64,000 nucleotides of DNA, from the NCBI GenBank assembly GCA_036676395.1, contig JAKFCY010000002.1:1152001-1216000 (forward strand), read 5' to 3'. Source of the stretch: Bdellovibrio sp. GTDB lineage: Bacteria; Bdellovibrionota; Bdellovibrionia; Bdellovibrionales; Bdellovibrionaceae. Shown in pieces: positions 33,001 to 42,000 of the stretch. A program made the position numbers. How positions within the stretch are numbered: position 1 is the first letter of the stretch; every line of letters begins with the position of its first letter.

Positions 33001-36000
33001 ACTAATTTTTCGACTACTTCAGAGTTCGTATGTCTTTTTAATTCTACACGATTTGAATTTGATTTAACTGGTTCAATAATAACAGGAATCTTGCGCGCGA
33101 CAGGTGCGGGTGCAGGCAATAACAAGATAGGTTCAAATAGCTGGCGGCAGCTATTGCCATAAGCAATCGATGAAGTGACGAAAGACAATGTGTATAAAAT
33201 GGCGACTAAGATTCTCATACCAGTTGGTATAATCAAGAAATGTACCGCCACGTCTGGTTATAGCTGGATTATATTGATTCTGAGTGTCTCATTTCGAGAG
33301 ACCGAGCGTGAAAAGGCACAGATTGATATGACACTGTCTAATTATTTTTCACCCTCGTAACGGTAGCGTTCTAAGAACCACTCGACCCGGGTACGCATTT
33401 TGTCTGGAAATTCCACAAGGGTTGCATCAGTGATTTCGCCTTTAATAATTTGGGCCGCGTAGGCATCGCAAACTTCACCCAGCTTTTTATTCAGCTTTTT
33501 AAGAAAGTCGATTTGTTCATTATCGCCTTCATTTTTGTCGGCATTAAGTCTGACTTCGCCGCTCTTAAGTTCATGCTGAATTTGCATAAAACGTAAGATG
33601 TCGCGCATGTTCTTACGAACATCATGAAGCTCATCGACTTCCATTGTTCGTTTAGCCATAATTAAGCGTGTGTCTTTGATGATAGCTTCAAAGTAGGCTT
33701 TAACTGATTTTCTAGAAGCGGGCTTTATGTCTTTAAGTAAAGCTTCAAATTCAACATCTTTAAATTTTTTAATAAGTTTTTTTGCAGCTTGTTGCGCCTG
33801 GGCGCTTTCGCCGATATTTACCATGTCTTTAAGGTGACCAAAATCACGAACGAATTTGGCAAATTTATCAGGGCTTGCGTGGTCTTTACTTGAAGTCTGA
33901 AATACCGAACGTAAAAACGAAGTGTCTTGGCGAAATCTATTGATCTTCACTTTTTGCTCAGGCGTGATAACAGCTAGCCCTGTATAGCGAATGGTCATAA
34001 GAGTTGTTTTAAGATCTACTAAGTCAGCGTTAGCTAATAAGTTATAGTGAGCGGTCTCGAGAAAGCGCGCAGATTCTTTTTTGCCATTTAACGTGATAAT
34101 GAATTCTTTAACTTCATACTCTTTCGGCTCAAATAGGTTTCTGCAAGCTAATGCCTGAGCATTTACCTTAAGAGATACCAGCGTTAAAATCAGAATGAAA
34201 AAAGTTTTACATACGTTCATCGTTAGAGAATATAACGGTTTCGCACTGTTGATTTCAACTGTAATGATTCTGACAGTGAGTTGTCGAACTTATGATGGTT
34301 TTAAAAAACTAAGGCCACTCGAGGCGGCCTTAGTAACACTTTTTGTCTAAATTAAGATTTTAAAATTAGTAAGTATCTAAATCGTAAGACTGGCATTTGA
34401 TGGTAGAAACTGTCGCTTCGCAAGTAGTATTGATGGTTCCATCTCTCCAGCATTTTGTTAATACGTTGTTACGAACATGTGAAACAGTTTGCATGTAGAT
34501 TGAATCACTTGCGTAGAACACGAAGTACGTTGCTGCATTTGTGCATTTTAGTGTAGCCATTTTTTCGTCGGCGTTGTCTTGAGAAGTTTCGCATTGAAAT
34601 GCTGAAGACTGCGTGTTTAAAGCTTTTAAAAAACTTGGGCTAACGTCTTTCCAGTTACAGTTCGAGCCGGCCGCTGCAAAAGTCGTAACTTGTAAGAAAA
34701 TAATGATAGCTAAAATAACGCCCGCTCTGAACATGAGAATCTCCTGCTTGATCTTTGAGTTCAATATTTTGAATGGTTGAGGTGATAGCTTAACGAGCGG
34801 ATATTGTTGAGCTATTGTTTAAGGGGGGCTCAGAATCGTGAAGATTTTGCAAGGGCACCAGGGGCGGTTTAAATCGATCTTAAAGGGGAGGGTTGGTCTG
34901 GCCGAGAGCAAAAAATAGGCACCATTGATTTCAGCCTTGCCACCTGGGTGGCCATAGTCTAATTTAACCCTTCAAATTAAGGCTAACAGTTGAGCTATCA
35001 AGTAAACTGAATATTTCAGTTTCGCCCTGTTGGAGGAAGGTTAGACTATGTCTAAAATGAAAACGCACTCTGGTGCAAAAAAACGCATGCGCGTTCTACC
35101 GTCTGGTAAAGTTAAGCGCAAACAAACAAAAATGCGTCACTTAAACTCACACATGAGTTCAAAAACTAAACGTCATTTAGGCCAAACGGTTTTGGTTGCT
35201 GACTCTAACATGCTTCAAGTGAAGCGCCAATTCGGTTTCTAAGAGGAGTAGCTCATGGCACGTGTAAAATCGGGGATGACTAATCGTCGTCGCCACAAAA
35301 AAGTTTTAAAAAGAACAAAAGGTTACTATTCAGCGGGTTCACGCTCATACACTCACGCGGTTGAAAAAAATGACCGTGGTATGGTGTTCGCTTATAAACA
35401 CAGAAAAATGAAAAAACGTAACTTCCGTATGCTTTGGACACAAAGAATCAATGCGGCAGCTCGTTTAAACGGTACAACGTACTCTCGCTTAATCGGTGGA
35501 TTAATCAAAGCGGGCATTACTTTAGATCGTAAAGTTTTATCTGATATCGCTATCACTGATGCAGCGGCATTCACTGCTTTGTGTCAGCACGCGATCAAAT
35601 AGTCTAATTTCTTATTAGATGTCGCTACGAAGTGGCGCAAAATATTTGCAAAAGGCGAGAGAAATCTCGCCTTTTTTTTTACTTAGGACTACTCTCTCAA
35701 CATGTCTGCAAATTACTCTGATAAACATGCCGCATTTGAGCAACGCAAGAAAGCTCACATTGATCTGTCTCTCGATCCGAGAACTCAAGGAAAGACAGCG
35801 TCGCATTTTGATAAAATCAAATTAATCCATGAAGCGCTTCCAGAAATTAATTTATCTGACGTTACTTTAGAAACTAAACTTTTAGGCTTTCAATTTTCAT
35901 CTCCACACTTTGTCAGTTCAATGACTGCCGGTCATCAGAACAGCAAAGTGATTAATATGCGTTTAGCAAAGGCGGCTGCCCAAAATAATTGGTTAATGGC

Positions 36001-39000: not shown

Positions 39001-42000
39001 CAACGAATTCGTCGTTATCTTGGACCTTAAATAATTTGCGCACGTTTGTTCGTATTAAACAAAATAGCGAATTAACTTCTGATCAATGGCAGCCACTAAA
39101 ACGTAATGATTTACTTCCGATTGAATTGTCAGAAAAAGGCCGTCAAAAATTCTTAGATTTTTTTGCTAAACTTAAAACTGAATTTAAATTAACTGGTTTT
39201 TTTGAAATTGAATCAGCTAATAATTTTCCGTCTGATTGTGGCCTTGCCAGTTCGGCCAGTAGTTTTGCGGCATTGACTCAAGGCGCACATCAATACGCAG
39301 GTGCGCGGTACTTACCAAAAGAGCTTGCTAGAATTTCTCAGCGTGGTTCTGGATCTTCATGCCGTTCATTTTTTTCGCCGTGGGCCTTATGGCATGAGCA
39401 AGGTGCTGAAGAGATTCAGATGCCGATCAAAGAACTAAAACACATGGTTATTTTGTGTGATGAAACTAAAAAATCAGTTTCTTCAAGCCAAGCTCATGTT
39501 CAGGTTTTAACTTCTGATTTATTTAAAGGCCGCCCAGAACGTGCTGCTGATCGTTTACAAAAATTAATTACGGCCCTTCGTAAACCCGAAACAGAATGGA
39601 AAAACATTTTTCAAATCTGCTGGAACGAATTCTGGGATATGCACACACTATTTCATACATCTGTGCCTGCGTTTATGTATTTAAACGGGGCTGGATTCGC
39701 GGCGCTTTCTGAAATTTTAGAGATGTGGCAAAAAGACGGTGATGGGCCAATTGTTACAATGGATGCCGGAAGCAATATTCATTTATTGTTCAGAACTAAC
39801 CAGCCAGGCAGTTATACAAAATATTTAAATCATTTTAATGCTCAGTTTAACCTTTGGACCGATGACGGTTATCAAAACCGTAAAGACTAATCATGGCTGA
39901 AAGTTTTGAAACACTGAAATCAGATTGGTCAGTACAGGTGCCAGGTAAATGGATCTTGGCCGGTGAACACGCGGTCTTACGCGGAAGCCAGGCGATTGTG
40001 TTTCCGTTAAAATCAAGATTCTTAAGTTTAAGTTATTTCAATAAAGATTCAGAATTTAAAATTTTAATCGCCGGCCTATGTGCTTCAGACCTTGAAATGA
40101 TTATTTGGTCTGTCGTTGAGCGCGCCCTAGGTGAATTACAGCTAAAGCGCTCTGACCTTAAGGGTGAACTTAAAATCTATTCGCATATTCAATTTGGCGC
40201 AGGTATGGGGGCTTCGGCTACTTTAGCTGTAGGGCTTACTTTGTTTTTTCAACATTTAGGTGTTTTAAAAACTGATCCATTTTTATTTGCTAAAAAAATT
40301 GAAGATTTATTTCACGGCGAAAGCAGTGGGGTCGATGTAGCTGTTGCGCTTCATCAAAAGCCAATGATTTTTGAAAAGAATAAAGAAAACATTTTCTTTG
40401 ATTTAAAAAATCTTCCGCTTCTGTATTTGTCGTACACCGGTCAGCGTGGCGTCACTAAAGACTGTGTTAATAAGGTCAAAGATCTTATCCTCGAAAAACC
40501 AGAGCATGCTAATGCGGTTGATGAGCGTATGAAAAAAGTTGTGCAAGATTTTATTTCATCTCGCTTTGAATGGACTGAGCAAGAATGGATTGAACATTTG
40601 AATTTAGCCCAGAGCTGTTTTGAAAGCTGGGATCTGGTGCCAACGATCGTTGAACAGCATATGTTAAAATTAAAAAAAGCAGGCGCATTGGCCTGCAAAT
40701 TAACTGGCTCAGGCAGCGGTGGCTACGTTTTAAGTTTATGGAGCCATAAACCTGCTGAGTCTGAATTGAACTCTGAACTTATCCCTGTATTTCTATAATT
40801 GGATTTAAAATATGAAAAAATTAGTGATCATCCCAACCTATAATGAAATTGAAAATATCCAGGCTTTGCTTCCTGTGCTGATGAAGCTTGAGCAAAAATT
40901 TGATGTGCTTGTTGTTGATGACAGTTCTCCGGATGGCACGGCTAAATTTGTTGAACAGTTTGCGAAAACTGAGCCGCGTGTAAATGTGTTGGTTCGTGCG
41001 GCGAAGCAAGGTTTAGGCAAAGCTTATTTAGCGGGTTTTGATTGGGGATTAAAAAATAATTACGATGTTTTAACTGAAATGGATGCTGATTTTTCGCATG
41101 CTCCGAAGCACTTAAATGAAATCTTAGCCTTAATAGAACAGCACGATGTCGTGATCGGTTCTAGATACGTTACTGGCGGCGGTACAGTTAATTGGGGATT
41201 AATTCGTAAAATTATCTCGCGCGGGGGTAGTCTTTATTCGCGTTTGATTTTAGGCTACCCATTGCGTGATTGGACCGGTGGATTTAATTGCTGGCGTAAA
41301 GAAGTTTTGCACAAAATTAATCTGAGCAGTATTCAATCTAATGGTTATTCTTTTCAAATCGAATTAAAATATAAAGCTTTAAAAAATGGTTATAAGATTC
41401 AGGAAACGCCGATTATTTTTGAAGATCGCCGTGTAGGTCAAAGCAAAATGTCTTTAAAAATTGTGTTAGAGGCTTTTTATAAAGTTTGGCTTATTAAAGG
41501 CTACTAGCTAAAGGTTACTAGTTTTTCTTAAAAGCTTACGCACTATATTTCTGACCACGCGTACAATCCATAGGCTGTCGTGTTTTCTTGAAAATCTATA
41601 GCCCCAGTTTTTTGAATTCGGTAAAAGCCAGTAAAAAAACGGTAAGAACACGCGTCGCGGAAACCAACGTTTAAAATAATAAAAAAATTCGGCATCAAAA
41701 CTTGCAGGCACCCACAAAGGTGGGCGCTCGGTACGAATCACATTATAAGTTAATTCTGCAATCGATTGCGGCGTTGAAAGGCTGCGATTTTTAAGATTTG
41801 CAACAAAGGGAATCATGCTGGTGTACATGTCTTCGTAAGGCTGATCTTCTTTATGAGGCTTTTCTGAAAACTTGATTCGCGAATGCTGGGCTGAGTGAAT
41901 AAAGCCAGGCTGCACCAAAGCTACATCAATCCCAAATGGGCGCAGTTCATACCACAGTGATTCCATAGCGCCTTCAAGGGCATACTTCGAAGCAGAATAC

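Follow-up and report, generated by a model that had tools for sequence, protein, structure and literature searches.

A Bdellovibrio mevalonate operon with a probable phosphomevalonate kinase of the GHMP type and a possible leucine origin of its HMG-CoA

In this Bdellovibrio sp., a six-gene operon would supply all IPP and DMAPP of the organism via the mevalonate pathway, and its third gene, g01167, very probably acts as phosphomevalonate kinase (PMK), a substrate assignment based on fold and operon slot. Since no HMG-CoA synthase was found, HMG-CoA would be drawn from leucine catabolism, which we regard, with modest confidence, as the best reading of the gene content and synteny. For the scheme as a whole, the chances for and against are about even. 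The window, i.e. the whole stretch of DNA analysed, comprises 64,000 nucleotides; the genome has 3.40 Mb in 14 contigs and is 99.31% complete.

The operon and its genes

Six genes are packed on the + strand at positions 35702-41507 of the window. The five ORFs g01165-g01169, which an earlier note had described as a mevalonate operon, were recovered at these positions in an ORF check, and their family scores agree with that note.

35255-35602: rplT, ORF upstream of hairpin and operon
35650..35675, + strand: terminator-like hairpin, 11-pair stem followed by a T run, downstream of rplT
35702..36763, + strand: type 2 isopentenyl-diphosphate isomerase (IDI-2), 353 aa (TIGR02151, 324.8 bits, cut-off 281.3)
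36744..38024, + strand: class II HMG-CoA reductase (HMGR), 426 aa (PF00368, 7.2e-95)
37996..38868, + strand: g01167, divergent GHMP kinase, probable PMK, 290 aa (fold and operon slot)
38895..39890, + strand: diphosphomevalonate decarboxylase (MDD, g01168), 331 aa (PF22700, 1.6e-36; also PF18376)
39893..40798, + strand: mevalonate kinase (MVK, g01169), 301 aa (TIGR00549, 1.5e-38)
40812..41507, + strand: family 2 glycosyltransferase (GT2), 231 aa (PF00535, 2.9e-28)

Upstream, the operon is bounded by the hairpin. The HMGR ORF starts within the IDI-2 ORF (20-base overlap), and the following junctions comprise an overlap of 29 bases and gaps of 26 and 2 bases, while the glycosyltransferase gene begins 13 bases past the end of the MVK gene. 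IDI-2 also matches Pfam FMN_dh (2.2e-22), and HMGR reaches 361.4 bits on TIGR00532 (cut-off 259.95). For g01168, the score on TIGR01240 lies just below the cut-off (168.3 vs 171.35 bits); with NF040704, the model for phosphomevalonate decarboxylase, it amounts to 50.5 bits. Since g01168 scores as a classical decarboxylase, the pathway needs a PMK. Mevalonate kinase g01169 remains below the TIGR00549 cut-off (132.9 vs 163.05 bits); it carries the N-terminal motif GEHAVL and lies within the MVK clade of the kinase tree (support 96/86). Among the 80 best related loci, 26 have this glycosyltransferase gene directly after MVK, and its product shows weak matches to sugar transferases acting on dolichyl or undecaprenyl phosphate. 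Being polyprenyl-phosphate sugar transferase-like in sequence, it is probably a same-operon user of the isoprenoid carrier lipid.

According to the proposed scheme, the class II reductase would convert HMG-CoA to mevalonate, which would be phosphorylated by g01169 and then, as phosphomevalonate, by g01167. The product would be decarboxylated by g01168, and the resulting IPP isomerised by IDI-2. The MEP pathway was not found as an alternative: searches of the genome for LYTB (IspH) and DXP_reductoisom (Dxr) yielded sub-threshold noise only. In a sample of 81 Bdellovibrionota genomes, HMGR (50/81) and IspH (31/81) were exactly complementary, with IspH in none of the 50 HMGR-bearing genomes; since related genomes are non-independent, these and the following counts overstate the support. 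The mevalonate-only isoprenoid supply assumed before is thereby upheld.

The kinase g01167 and its assignment

A Pfam search of g01167 at E ≤ 1 returned no family, and its sole NCBIfam match was GHMP_GYDIA (E 0.01, residues 9-35). The AF2 model, based on a 67-sequence alignment, showed a pLDDT of 95.1 and a pTM of 0.92, and of the 500 best Foldseek matches in the PDB, 200 had E ≤ 0.001, led by 2hfs (3.5e-12), 2oi2, 1vis and 1kkh. The PMK structures 1k47 (1.9e-11, TMq 0.68) and 3gon (3.1e-10) appear in the same list. By this model, g01167 folds as a GHMP kinase. Its motifs are PGKTFLVGEYAVL (residues 12-24), GGFGASTAE (residues 78-86) and KPCGALGAD (residues 240-248). The earlier claim that the first two are invariant holds in 67 wider relatives for K14, G19, E20, Y21, G79, G81, S83 and A85, but not for T84 and E86, which vary. 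The N-terminal GEY is common to the consensus of the g01167 family (A1), the GYDIA consensus and 3k17, which we take to be the PMK Lin0012, while MVKs carry GEH. At the level of profiles the family is roughly equidistant to 3k17 (2.5e-10) and MVK 1kkh (6.6e-10), and its match to PMK 1k47 is weak (1.5e-4).

Relatives at E ≤ 0.001 number 703. Contrary to the statement that all named ones belong to Bdellovibrionota, the family is also carried by Legionella, Coxiellaceae and Parachlamydiaceae. In Bdellovibrionota, Legionellales and Parachlamydiaceae alike, its gene is the one immediately downstream of HMGR. In each case it is a second kinase, accompanying a recognisable MVK together with a classical-type MDD. 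Of the 80 best related loci, 57 show the full order IDI-2, HMGR, g01167 family, MDD, MVK, which also occurs in many Bdellovibrionota families. Within the phylum sample, the g01167 family was present in 38 of 50 HMGR-bearing genomes compared to none of the 31 lacking HMGR. The remaining 12 all belong to one family (f20, Halobacteriovorax type), in which the same slot after HMGR holds a GHMP kinase of the GYDIA family (366 and 353 bits). In the kinase tree, the g01167 family forms a clade of its own (100/99), and the slot kinases (g01167 family, GYDIA, f15/f16) group at 85/80 outside the MVK clade; this grouping is of moderate support, with long branches flagged and the classical Gram-positive PMKs left out.

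The proposed PMK role is not new, merely unannotated, given that a Bdellovibrio ortholog (OWT44224.1) is placed within the PMVK tree of Hoshino & Gaucher 2018, in one clade with Flavobacterium johnsoniae and Halobacteriovorax (PMC6107057, supplement Fig. S9). The main text of that paper attributes the discovery of the Bacteroidetes MVK and PMVK to Hayakawa et al. 2017. The gene is indeed a GHMP-fold PMK candidate, as the earlier note had proposed from its fold, but the term 'cryptic' cannot be kept. It would represent a GHMP-type PMK from a divergent lineage common to Bacteroidetes, Halobacteriovorax and Legionellales.

The labels of the relatives read 'mevalonate kinase', 'mevalonate kinase family protein' or 'hypothetical protein', never PMK. 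Together with the first rank of MVKs in the fold search and the weak match of 39 of 67 family members to the MVK model (6 match TIGR01220, g01167 itself does not), this could point to a second MVK, or to a kinase acting on some other small acid or sugar, with the PMK step encoded elsewhere or performed by a promiscuous MVK. Such an assignment is improbable, since a separate, better-scoring MVK lies in the same operon, the family occurs only in HMGR-bearing genomes with the GYDIA family substituting position for position in f20, and both the kinase tree and the published PMVK tree speak against it. Nor is there another candidate: classical PMK (TIGR01220) exceeded its cut-off in none of the 81 genomes, and GHMP_kinases_N has three matches in the whole genome, namely MDD, MVK and an HddA-like sugar kinase, which leaves g01167 as the sole spare pathway kinase. 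The near miss of g01168 on TIGR01240 could also be read as an alternative route, in which g01168 decarboxylates phosphomevalonate and g01167 is a GHMP-fold isopentenyl phosphate kinase. We consider this scarcely credible: the classical model outscores the phosphomevalonate decarboxylase model by far, we know of no isopentenyl phosphate kinase with a GHMP fold, and the classical order of steps was reportedly shown for the Bacteroidetes lineage by Hayakawa et al. 2017. Furthermore, the published DPMD tree places the Bdellovibrionales protein with the Bacteroidetes decarboxylases (PMC6107057).

The origin of HMG-CoA

No match to HMG-CoA synthase (PF01154) was obtained in the genome at E ≤ 10, and TIGR01835 returned only two FabH-like proteins with 28.7 and 28.4 bits (cut-off 360.35). 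The same holds true for the complete B. bacteriovorus s4 chromosome, in which no HMG-CoA synthase was found, and for all 50 HMGR-bearing Bdellovibrionota genomes, so that the earlier observation extends to the phylum sample; in a second genome draw, 1 of 41 showed a synthase above cut-off. The published HMGS tree contains no Bdellovibrio, Halobacteriovorax or Legionella label (Hoshino & Gaucher 2018, PMC6107057). A Legionella-type family (G118) showed the same pattern, with HMGR in 30 of 31 genomes, HMG-CoA synthase in none of the 31, and orthologs of the beta subunit of methylcrotonyl-CoA carboxylase (MCC-beta; 59-62% identity) in the three genomes tested.

The genes for a leucine route, pointed out before, are all present. 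Contig C3 carries a cluster of HMG-CoA lyase (NF004283, 395.8 bits), BCCP, biotin carboxylase, enoyl-CoA hydratase and carboxyltransferase. For an acyl-CoA dehydrogenase encoded at about C2:823.7-824.9 kb, the best matches are isovaleryl-CoA dehydrogenases of known structure (4o5m 1.8e-98, 1ivh 1.4e-88), and one alpha/beta E1 dehydrogenase (best PDB match 1um9, 4.2e-28) is a candidate for the formation of isovaleryl-CoA from 2-oxoisocaproate, with which the route would begin. Isovaleryl-CoA would then be converted to HMG-CoA by isovaleryl-CoA dehydrogenase, methylcrotonyl-CoA carboxylase and methylglutaconyl-CoA hydratase, and HMGR and HMG-CoA lyase would compete for it in this genome. The lyase is the single HMGL-like gene; isopropylmalate synthase (LeuA) is absent and leucine must therefore come from prey.

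Across the 50 HMGR-bearing genomes, an MCC-beta type carboxyltransferase is kept throughout, with at least 60% identity in 39 and 37-41% in the other 11. In the three f15 genomes compared (G064, G085, G042) the low-identity homolog adjoins HMG-CoA lyase, and an adjoining hydratase was observed in G064 and G043. Two further observations were added to the gene content. In 3 of the 50 (G073 and G080 of f24, G116 of f28), HMGR and MCC-beta are divergently oriented neighbours; this arrangement was seen in none of the 80 loci most closely related to the present operon. In G116, one arm of the divergent arrangement comprises lyase, MCC-alpha, hydratase and MCC-beta and the other HMGR and a g01167-like gene, and the locus also holds polyprenyl synthase, MDD, MVK and IDI2. 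Moreover, HMG-CoA lyase is present in 46 of the 50, and the four exceptions (G073, G080, G054, G043; 91-97% complete) contain no HMGL-like protein at E ≤ 0.01 but still retain MCC-beta, with a hydratase beside it in G073, G054 and G043; the contig of G080 is too short to show one. In these genomes no outlet for HMG-CoA other than HMGR is visible.

Families using the MEP pathway (f17, f21, f27) likewise contain MCC and lyase, which thus serve catabolism independently and whose presence alone is no sign of a mevalonate link. This would suit an unrecognised HMG-CoA synthase that uses acetyl-CoA and acetoacetyl-CoA, either non-homologous and hence invisible to homology searches or from the thiolase superfamily, such as the second FabH paralog in an additional function, with the leucine genes serving ordinary catabolism. 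Two FabH-family proteins are encoded, one of them (C2:86119-87129) outside the fab cluster. Both clear the FabH cut-off by a good margin (422.8 and 338.2 vs 292.1 bits), and their scores on the archaeal HMGCS model fall far short of its cut-off (100.6 and 84.4 vs 244 bits). The second paralog has orthologs of at least 46% identity in MEP-using f17, f18 and f27, and in many HMGR-bearing genomes no ortholog was found, among them the complete genome G003 of the same genus and those of f6, f15, f24 and f28; thus, the paralog does not track the pathway. The earlier suggestion of a FabH-like synthase is weakened by these scores and this distribution. Since, in addition, the 80 loci revealed no other conserved gene alongside the operon, and an unrecognised synthase leaves both HMGR beside MCC-beta and hydratase and the loss of lyase with MCC kept unexplained, we regard it as rather unlikely. 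A reversed HMG-CoA lyase (acetoacetate + acetyl-CoA), for which the enzyme would be available here and in most HMGR-bearing relatives, or salvage of HMG-CoA or mevalonate from prey appears highly improbable: the lyase strongly favours cleavage, the four lyase-less genomes have HMGR all the same, and Gram-negative prey rely on the MEP pathway and are not known to contain a mevalonate pool.

Comparison with known systems

The closest counterpart of g01167 is the GYDIA-family kinase (NF040656), the PMVK of Bacteroidetes and Halobacteriovorax type, a model which presumably corresponds to the F. johnsoniae PMVK of Hayakawa et al. 2017. Both share the GHMP fold, the operon slot between HMGR and MDD and the motifs GEY and SGxD, and a profile-profile comparison gave a probability of 96% (E 4.5e-9). 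They lie on the same side of the kinase tree and share a clade in the published PMVK tree (PMC6107057). Unlike GYDIA kinases, g01167 scores 15 bits on NF040656 (cut-off 225), is about 50 residues shorter and belongs to the separate clade described above. The classical GHMP-type PMK (S. pneumoniae 1K47/3GON; TIGR01220) matches g01167 in fold and pathway position, while the profile matches to the family are weak, g01167 has no TIGR01220 match, and the family sequence is no closer to PMK than to MVK.

Myxobacteria have a leucine-to-mevalonate shunt, and in them as in trypanosomatids the chemistry is the same as proposed here, leading via isovaleryl-CoA, methylcrotonyl-CoA, methylglutaconyl-CoA and HMG-CoA to mevalonate. 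These organisms also possess HMG-CoA synthase, making leucine an extra source, whereas here it would be the sole one. For procyclic Trypanosoma brucei, a passage of PMC5993337 states that leucine feeds into sterols. Compared to the canonical bacterial pathway (thiolase, MvaS, HMGR, MVK, PMK, MDD, IDI-2), all steps from the reductase onward are found in one operon, but the committed condensing enzyme is absent here and in all 50 sampled HMGR-bearing Bdellovibrionota.

In Pseudomonas mevalonii, mvaAB encodes HMGR and HMG-CoA lyase for mevalonate catabolism. G116 likewise links a class II reductase ('degradative' model TIGR00532) with HMG-CoA lyase, while in f24 HMGR is linked to MCC and hydratase without lyase. 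In contrast to P. mevalonii, the reductase of the present genome is co-operonic with MVK, MDD and IDI-2 in an organism without MEP pathway, and must therefore run in the biosynthetic direction.

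The mevalonate operon as the source of isoprenoid precursors

The mevalonate genes are part of an operon of six open reading frames arranged head to tail on the + strand, with overlaps of 20 or 29 bases or gaps of 2 to 26 bases between adjacent frames. The G+C content is even over the operon region (0.38-0.41).

Features of the mevalonate operon (positions counted from the start of the window)
35650-35675: terminator-like hairpin with an 11-pair stem, between the upstream rplT and the operon
35702-36763, + strand: IDI-2 (TIGR02151, 324.8 bits)
36744-38024, + strand: class II HMG-CoA reductase, HMGR (TIGR00532, 361.4 bits)
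37996-38868, + strand: g01167, 290 aa (no Pfam family at E<=1; single NCBIfam hit, 15 bits)
38895-39890, + strand: diphosphomevalonate decarboxylase, MDD, g01168 (TIGR01240, 168.3 bits; cut-off 171.35)
39893-40798, + strand: mevalonate kinase, MVK, g01169 (TIGR00549, 132.9 bits; cut-off 163.05)
40812-41507, + strand: family 2 glycosyltransferase (PF00535, 2.9e-28)

HMGR, MVK, MDD and IPP isomerase of the canonical mevalonate pathway are all present, with MVK and MDD scoring slightly below their equivalog cut-offs. The ORF coordinates and family scores of the earlier note were reproduced, which confirms its observation of this locus.

Bacteria need isoprenoids to make quinones and the undecaprenyl carrier. 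In the source assembly, which comprises 3.40 Mb, is 99.31% complete and contains the window as C2:1152001-1216000, IspH and Dxr of the MEP pathway gave nothing above noise. A sample of 81 Bdellovibrionota genomes, each at least 90% complete and taken in one draw that was used for all queries, showed HMGR in 50 and IspH in 31 genomes, with zero overlap and zero genomes without both. Since IspH and Dxr were not found and HMGR and IspH are mutually exclusive in the phylum sample, the mevalonate operon is the only IPP source here, so that the earlier claim of an absent MEP pathway holds. In PMC4646340, the mevalonate pathway was described as a hallmark of the genomes of predatory bacteria.

The glycosyltransferase gene starts 13 bases after MVK and resembles polyprenyl-phosphate sugar transferases. 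Of 80 related loci, 26 have it at the same place, so that an enzyme consuming the carrier lipid is apparently co-transcribed with the precursor pathway. Other layouts were observed among the relatives. The operons of family f15 (loci L022, L048 and L049) comprise a polyprenyl synthase ahead of IDI2 and an extra ORF of ~190-210 aa without Pfam match between MDD and MVK, and in family f23 (L044, L046 and L047) the kinase, MDD and MVK are located away from HMGR. In L044, the kinase is preceded upstream by sufB (an ORF of 474 aa, 867 bits); L046 and L047 have ORFs of equal size at this position. In a high-GC f15 genome (L021, G085:C72, ~1500-5800, minus strand), the HMGR match lies within an open frame of ~800 aa and a kinase-like match within another frame of ~800 aa, which are either fusions or merely long open frames.

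The kinase encoded by g01167

Neither GHMP_kinases_N, GHMP_kinases_C nor any other Pfam family matched g01167 at E<=1, and its relatives carry no precomputed Pfam domain. The AF2 model calculated from an alignment of 67 relatives showed a two-domain GHMP fold (pLDDT 95.1, pTM 0.92). Foldseek assigned a probability of 1.00 to mevalonate, phosphomevalonate and galactokinases at TMq values of 0.62-0.72; the matches include the phosphomevalonate kinase (PMK) of S. pneumoniae (1k47, 1.9e-11, and 3gon), 3k17, mevalonate kinases and galactokinases. The GHMP motifs I to III were found as PGKTFLVGEY (12-21), GGFGASTAE (78-86, the glycine/serine-rich phosphate-binding motif II) and CGALGAD (242-248), and K14, G19, E20, Y21, G79, G81, S83 and A85 as well as S121, G122, D124, T168, H169, G243, A244 and G246 are invariant across the 67 sequences. 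g01167 is thus a GHMP kinase. The fold alone is silent on the substrate, as a comparison with solved structures cannot tell MVK, PMK and galactokinase apart.

Relatives of g01167 amount to 703 in a 90%-identity database and to 1222 representatives at 50% identity, the nearest named one belonging to Bdellovibrio sp. qaytius (78% identity). Within the phylum sample, 38 of the 50 genomes with HMGR contain the family, which was found in no genome of the 31 without HMGR. The 12 HMGR-bearing genomes without it all belong to family f20 (Halobacteriovorax/Bacteriovoracaceae), whose operon reads IDI2-HMGR-[GYDIA family GHMP kinase]-MDD-MVK; the Halobacteriovorax-type proteins encoded directly after HMGR reached 366 and 353 bits on the GYDIA model NF040656. 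The order IDI2-HMGR-g01167 family-MDD-MVK was constant over the families fetched and complete in 57 of the best 80 loci of a species-genome scan, which adds B. bacteriovorus, Legionella, Coxiellaceae and Parachlamydiaceae. Since one Coxiellaceae MAG and one Parachlamydiaceae locus carrying the family possess an HMG-CoA synthase, the family also serves complete pathways. In mevalonate-dependent genomes it represents a second kinase that is co-operonic with MVK and MDD.

With 168 bits on the classical model, compared to 50.5 bits for phosphomevalonate decarboxylase, g01168 fits the classical type of decarboxylase, and a phosphomevalonate kinase is therefore required. Three GHMP proteins are detectable by Pfam in the genome, namely MDD, MVK and an HddA-like sugar kinase. 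The last of these (C2, ~568.3-569.3 kb) was considered as PMK and set aside due to its HddA-like character (127 bits).

The curated PMK models TIGR01220 and NF040957 did not match g01167, and among its 67 relatives they matched six (best 3e-4) and one, respectively. Classical PMK (TIGR01220) exceeded the cut-off in 0/81 genomes of the phylum sample, which is a weak negative because a Lactococcus control likewise stayed below the cut-off. Against the PDB, the profile of the 67 sequences gave 3k17 (Lin0012), which we take to be a PMK, at 2.5e-10 and the MVK structure 1kkh at 6.6e-10. On the GYDIA model, g01167 reached 15 bits (E 0.01, residues 9-35 only), not the curated cut-off of 225 bits; a profile comparison of both alignments resulted in a probability of 96% and an E of 4.5e-9. 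The N-terminal motif is GEY in g01167, the GYDIA consensus and 3k17, and GEH in the MVK of this operon and in 1kkh. In a maximum-likelihood tree of 43 proteins, which includes no classical PMK and drew a long-branch warning from the tool, the MVKs (96/86), the g01167 family (100/99) and the GYDIA proteins (100/100) each formed a clade, and the kinases encoded directly after HMGR, including those of f15 and f16, joined the GYDIA proteins at 85/80, apart from the MVKs. In the ESM Atlas, g01167 clusters only with unnamed proteins or with the 'mevalonate kinase family'.

Altogether, g01167 is in all likelihood the phosphomevalonate kinase of the pathway. Its earlier nomination as candidate for the missing PMK is supported by the GHMP fold, its being the sole spare kinase, the conserved slot, the position apart from the MVKs and a published PMVK tree. 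The predicted role is well supported, yet it was already implicit in the literature. The PMVK tree of Hoshino & Gaucher 2018 (Fig. S9, PMC6107057) includes OWT44224.1 of Bdellovibrio sp. SKB1291214 (299 aa) and OFZ01226.1, and the clade labelled delta-Proteobacteria & Bacteroidetes in this figure also comprises Flavobacterium johnsoniae ABQ04449.1 and Halobacteriovorax CBW26336.1. According to the main text of that paper, MVK and PMVK of Bacteroidetes were identified only by Hayakawa et al. 2017, and OWT44222, OWT44223 and OWT44226 were placed in its IDI-II, HMGR-II and MVK trees (PMC6107057). These neighbouring accessions agree with the gene order at our locus. The study of Hayakawa et al. 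2017 is said to have included enzyme assays. In the databases, the family is named 'hypothetical protein', 'mevalonate kinase' or 'mevalonate kinase family protein', and hundreds of genomes carry it under one of the first two names. In consequence, reconstructions report PMK as missing, though it is very probably present.

The source of HMG-CoA

As claimed before, no HMG-CoA synthase was found in the genome: PF01154 gave 0 matches, and TIGR01835 matched just two FabH-family genes at ~28 bits. Nor was one found in B. bacteriovorus s4 (complete chromosome) or, with TIGR01835 at E<=1e-12, in any of the 50 HMGR-bearing genomes of the phylum sample; at this threshold the model matched 3/81 genomes, all from the HMGR-less family f14 (48-51 bits). 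A second draw comprised 41 relatives of the order, of which G040 alone showed a true synthase (379.6 bits). This gene (L008 = G040:C6:169455-173693, positions 1480-2751) adjoins a cheB-like gene with no mevalonate gene nearby and looks acquired. The absence of the synthase is real; it is true of every mevalonate-using Bdellovibrionota genome sampled and common to a Legionella-type family. Among the labels of the published HMGS tree, there is no Bdellovibrio, Halobacteriovorax, Pseudobacteriovorax or Legionella (PMC6107057). The literature searched did not discuss this absence for either genus, Bdellovibrio or Legionella; two possibly relevant studies (Lombard & Moreira 2011; Pasternak et al. 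2013) were outside its reach.

HMG-CoA could also be supplied by an unrecognised synthase, either a FabH paralog or a non-homologous enzyme, which we consider less likely. The FabH-like gene beside fabD scored 422.8 bits on the FabH model and the second paralog 338.2 bits, and both lie far under the HMGCS cut-offs; they are solid FabH family members. Moreover, the second paralog does not follow the pathway, since its orthologs are found in f17, f18 and f27, all of which use the MEP pathway, and are missing from the complete same-genus genome G003 and from f6, f15, f24 and f28. A FabH-like protein was accordingly rejected as hidden synthase, and the suggestion of the earlier note that such a gene might act in this way is weakened. 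The second FabH gene (C2:86119-87129; L005:940-1953, minus strand) is located outside the fab cluster, has orthologs scattered over mevalonate-using and MEP-using families, and may encode a branched-chain primer synthase.

The only visible candidate is leucine catabolism. On C3, a carboxyltransferase of 534 aa and a hydratase of the crotonase family share one cluster with HMG-CoA lyase (395.8 bits), BCCP and biotin carboxylase. A candidate isovaleryl-CoA dehydrogenase (IVD) on C2 was picked by its best PDB matches, as NCBIfam could not distinguish IVD from the remaining acyl-CoA dehydrogenases of the genome. The leucine/isovalerate (liu) gene set, i.e. IVD, both methylcrotonyl-CoA carboxylase (MCC) subunits alpha and beta, hydratase and lyase, thus appears complete, judged from homology and clustering. 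The single alpha/beta 2-oxo acid dehydrogenase E1 of the genome showed no PDB match for its alpha subunit at 1e-30 and ambiguous 2-oxo acid, pyruvate and branched-chain matches at 1e-8. As the lyase is the sole HMGL-like gene, the genome lacks isopropylmalate synthase and depends on imported leucine.

An MCC-beta type carboxyltransferase was found in 50/50 HMGR-bearing genomes, which are related and hence not independent; its identity is 60% or more in 39 of them and 37-41% in the other 11, which belong to f15 and f16. It adjoins HMG-CoA lyase in 3/3 f15 genomes with coordinates compared (G064, G085, G042), and a hydratase adjoins it in G064 and G043. In three genomes, G073 and G080 (both f24) and G116 (f28), HMGR and MCC-beta are direct neighbours in divergent orientation. 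At the G116 locus (L020 = G116:C2:726000-744000, positions 4980-15978), one strand carries lyase, MCC-alpha, hydratase and MCC-beta, and the other HMGR plus a gene similar to g01167; polyprenyl synthase, MDD, MVK and IDI2 come next. In G073, MCC-beta, hydratase and a 2-oxoacid:ferredoxin oxidoreductase adjoin HMGR. The two subunits of this oxidoreductase (L019, G073:C21, 5286-8133; TIGR03710 556 bits, beta subunit 205 bits) directly follow MCC-beta and hydratase, and the enzyme could convert 2-oxoisocaproate to isovaleryl-CoA.

Four HMGR-bearing genomes (G073, G080, G054 and G043; 91-97% complete) showed no HMGL-like protein at E<=0.01 and kept MCC-beta, with the hydratase beside it in all but G080, whose contig of 2.6 kb is not long enough to show one. 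Without the lyase, catabolism would stop at HMG-CoA unless this is consumed by HMGR. MCC and lyase are also encoded in families f17, f21 and f27, which use the MEP pathway, and the adjacency of HMGR and MCC is rare (3/50 genomes, 0/80 loci nearest to our own). Leucine catabolism is the only visible, putative source of HMG-CoA, backed by synteny and differential gene loss. Of the leucine supply proposed earlier, the gene content stands and is joined by these two observations, while the flux itself is still deduced from them.

A Legionella-type family and the textbook pathway

Both the g01167 family and the adjacency of HMGR and kinase were also observed in Legionellales. In the family of one Legionella MAG (G118-G150; the MAG behind L122), for which completeness is not reported, HMGR was found in 30/31 genomes, 28 of them above the cut-off, and HMG-CoA synthase in 0/31 at E<=1e-15. 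MCC-beta orthologs with 59-62% identity were present in 3/3 Legionella-type genomes examined. At locus L129, a biotin carboxylase gene directly follows the kinase.

Based on these findings, we tentatively propose that mevalonate-using Bdellovibrionota and this unrelated Legionella-type family, both living off other cells, possess a synthase-less mevalonate pathway with leucine as sole source of HMG-CoA, which would render carrier lipid and quinones strictly dependent on leucine of the prey or host. Leucine feeding offers a clean and cheap test, because leucine-derived isoprene units retain five carbons intact: the carboxyl introduced by MCC ends up as C1 of mevalonate and leaves again in the decarboxylase step. 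If true, growth would be tied to feeding by a built-in metabolic link, a possible contributor to obligate host dependence. A synthase-less pathway fed by leucine only would be a concrete nutritional dependency on prey and, compared to the textbook pathway, a new architecture.
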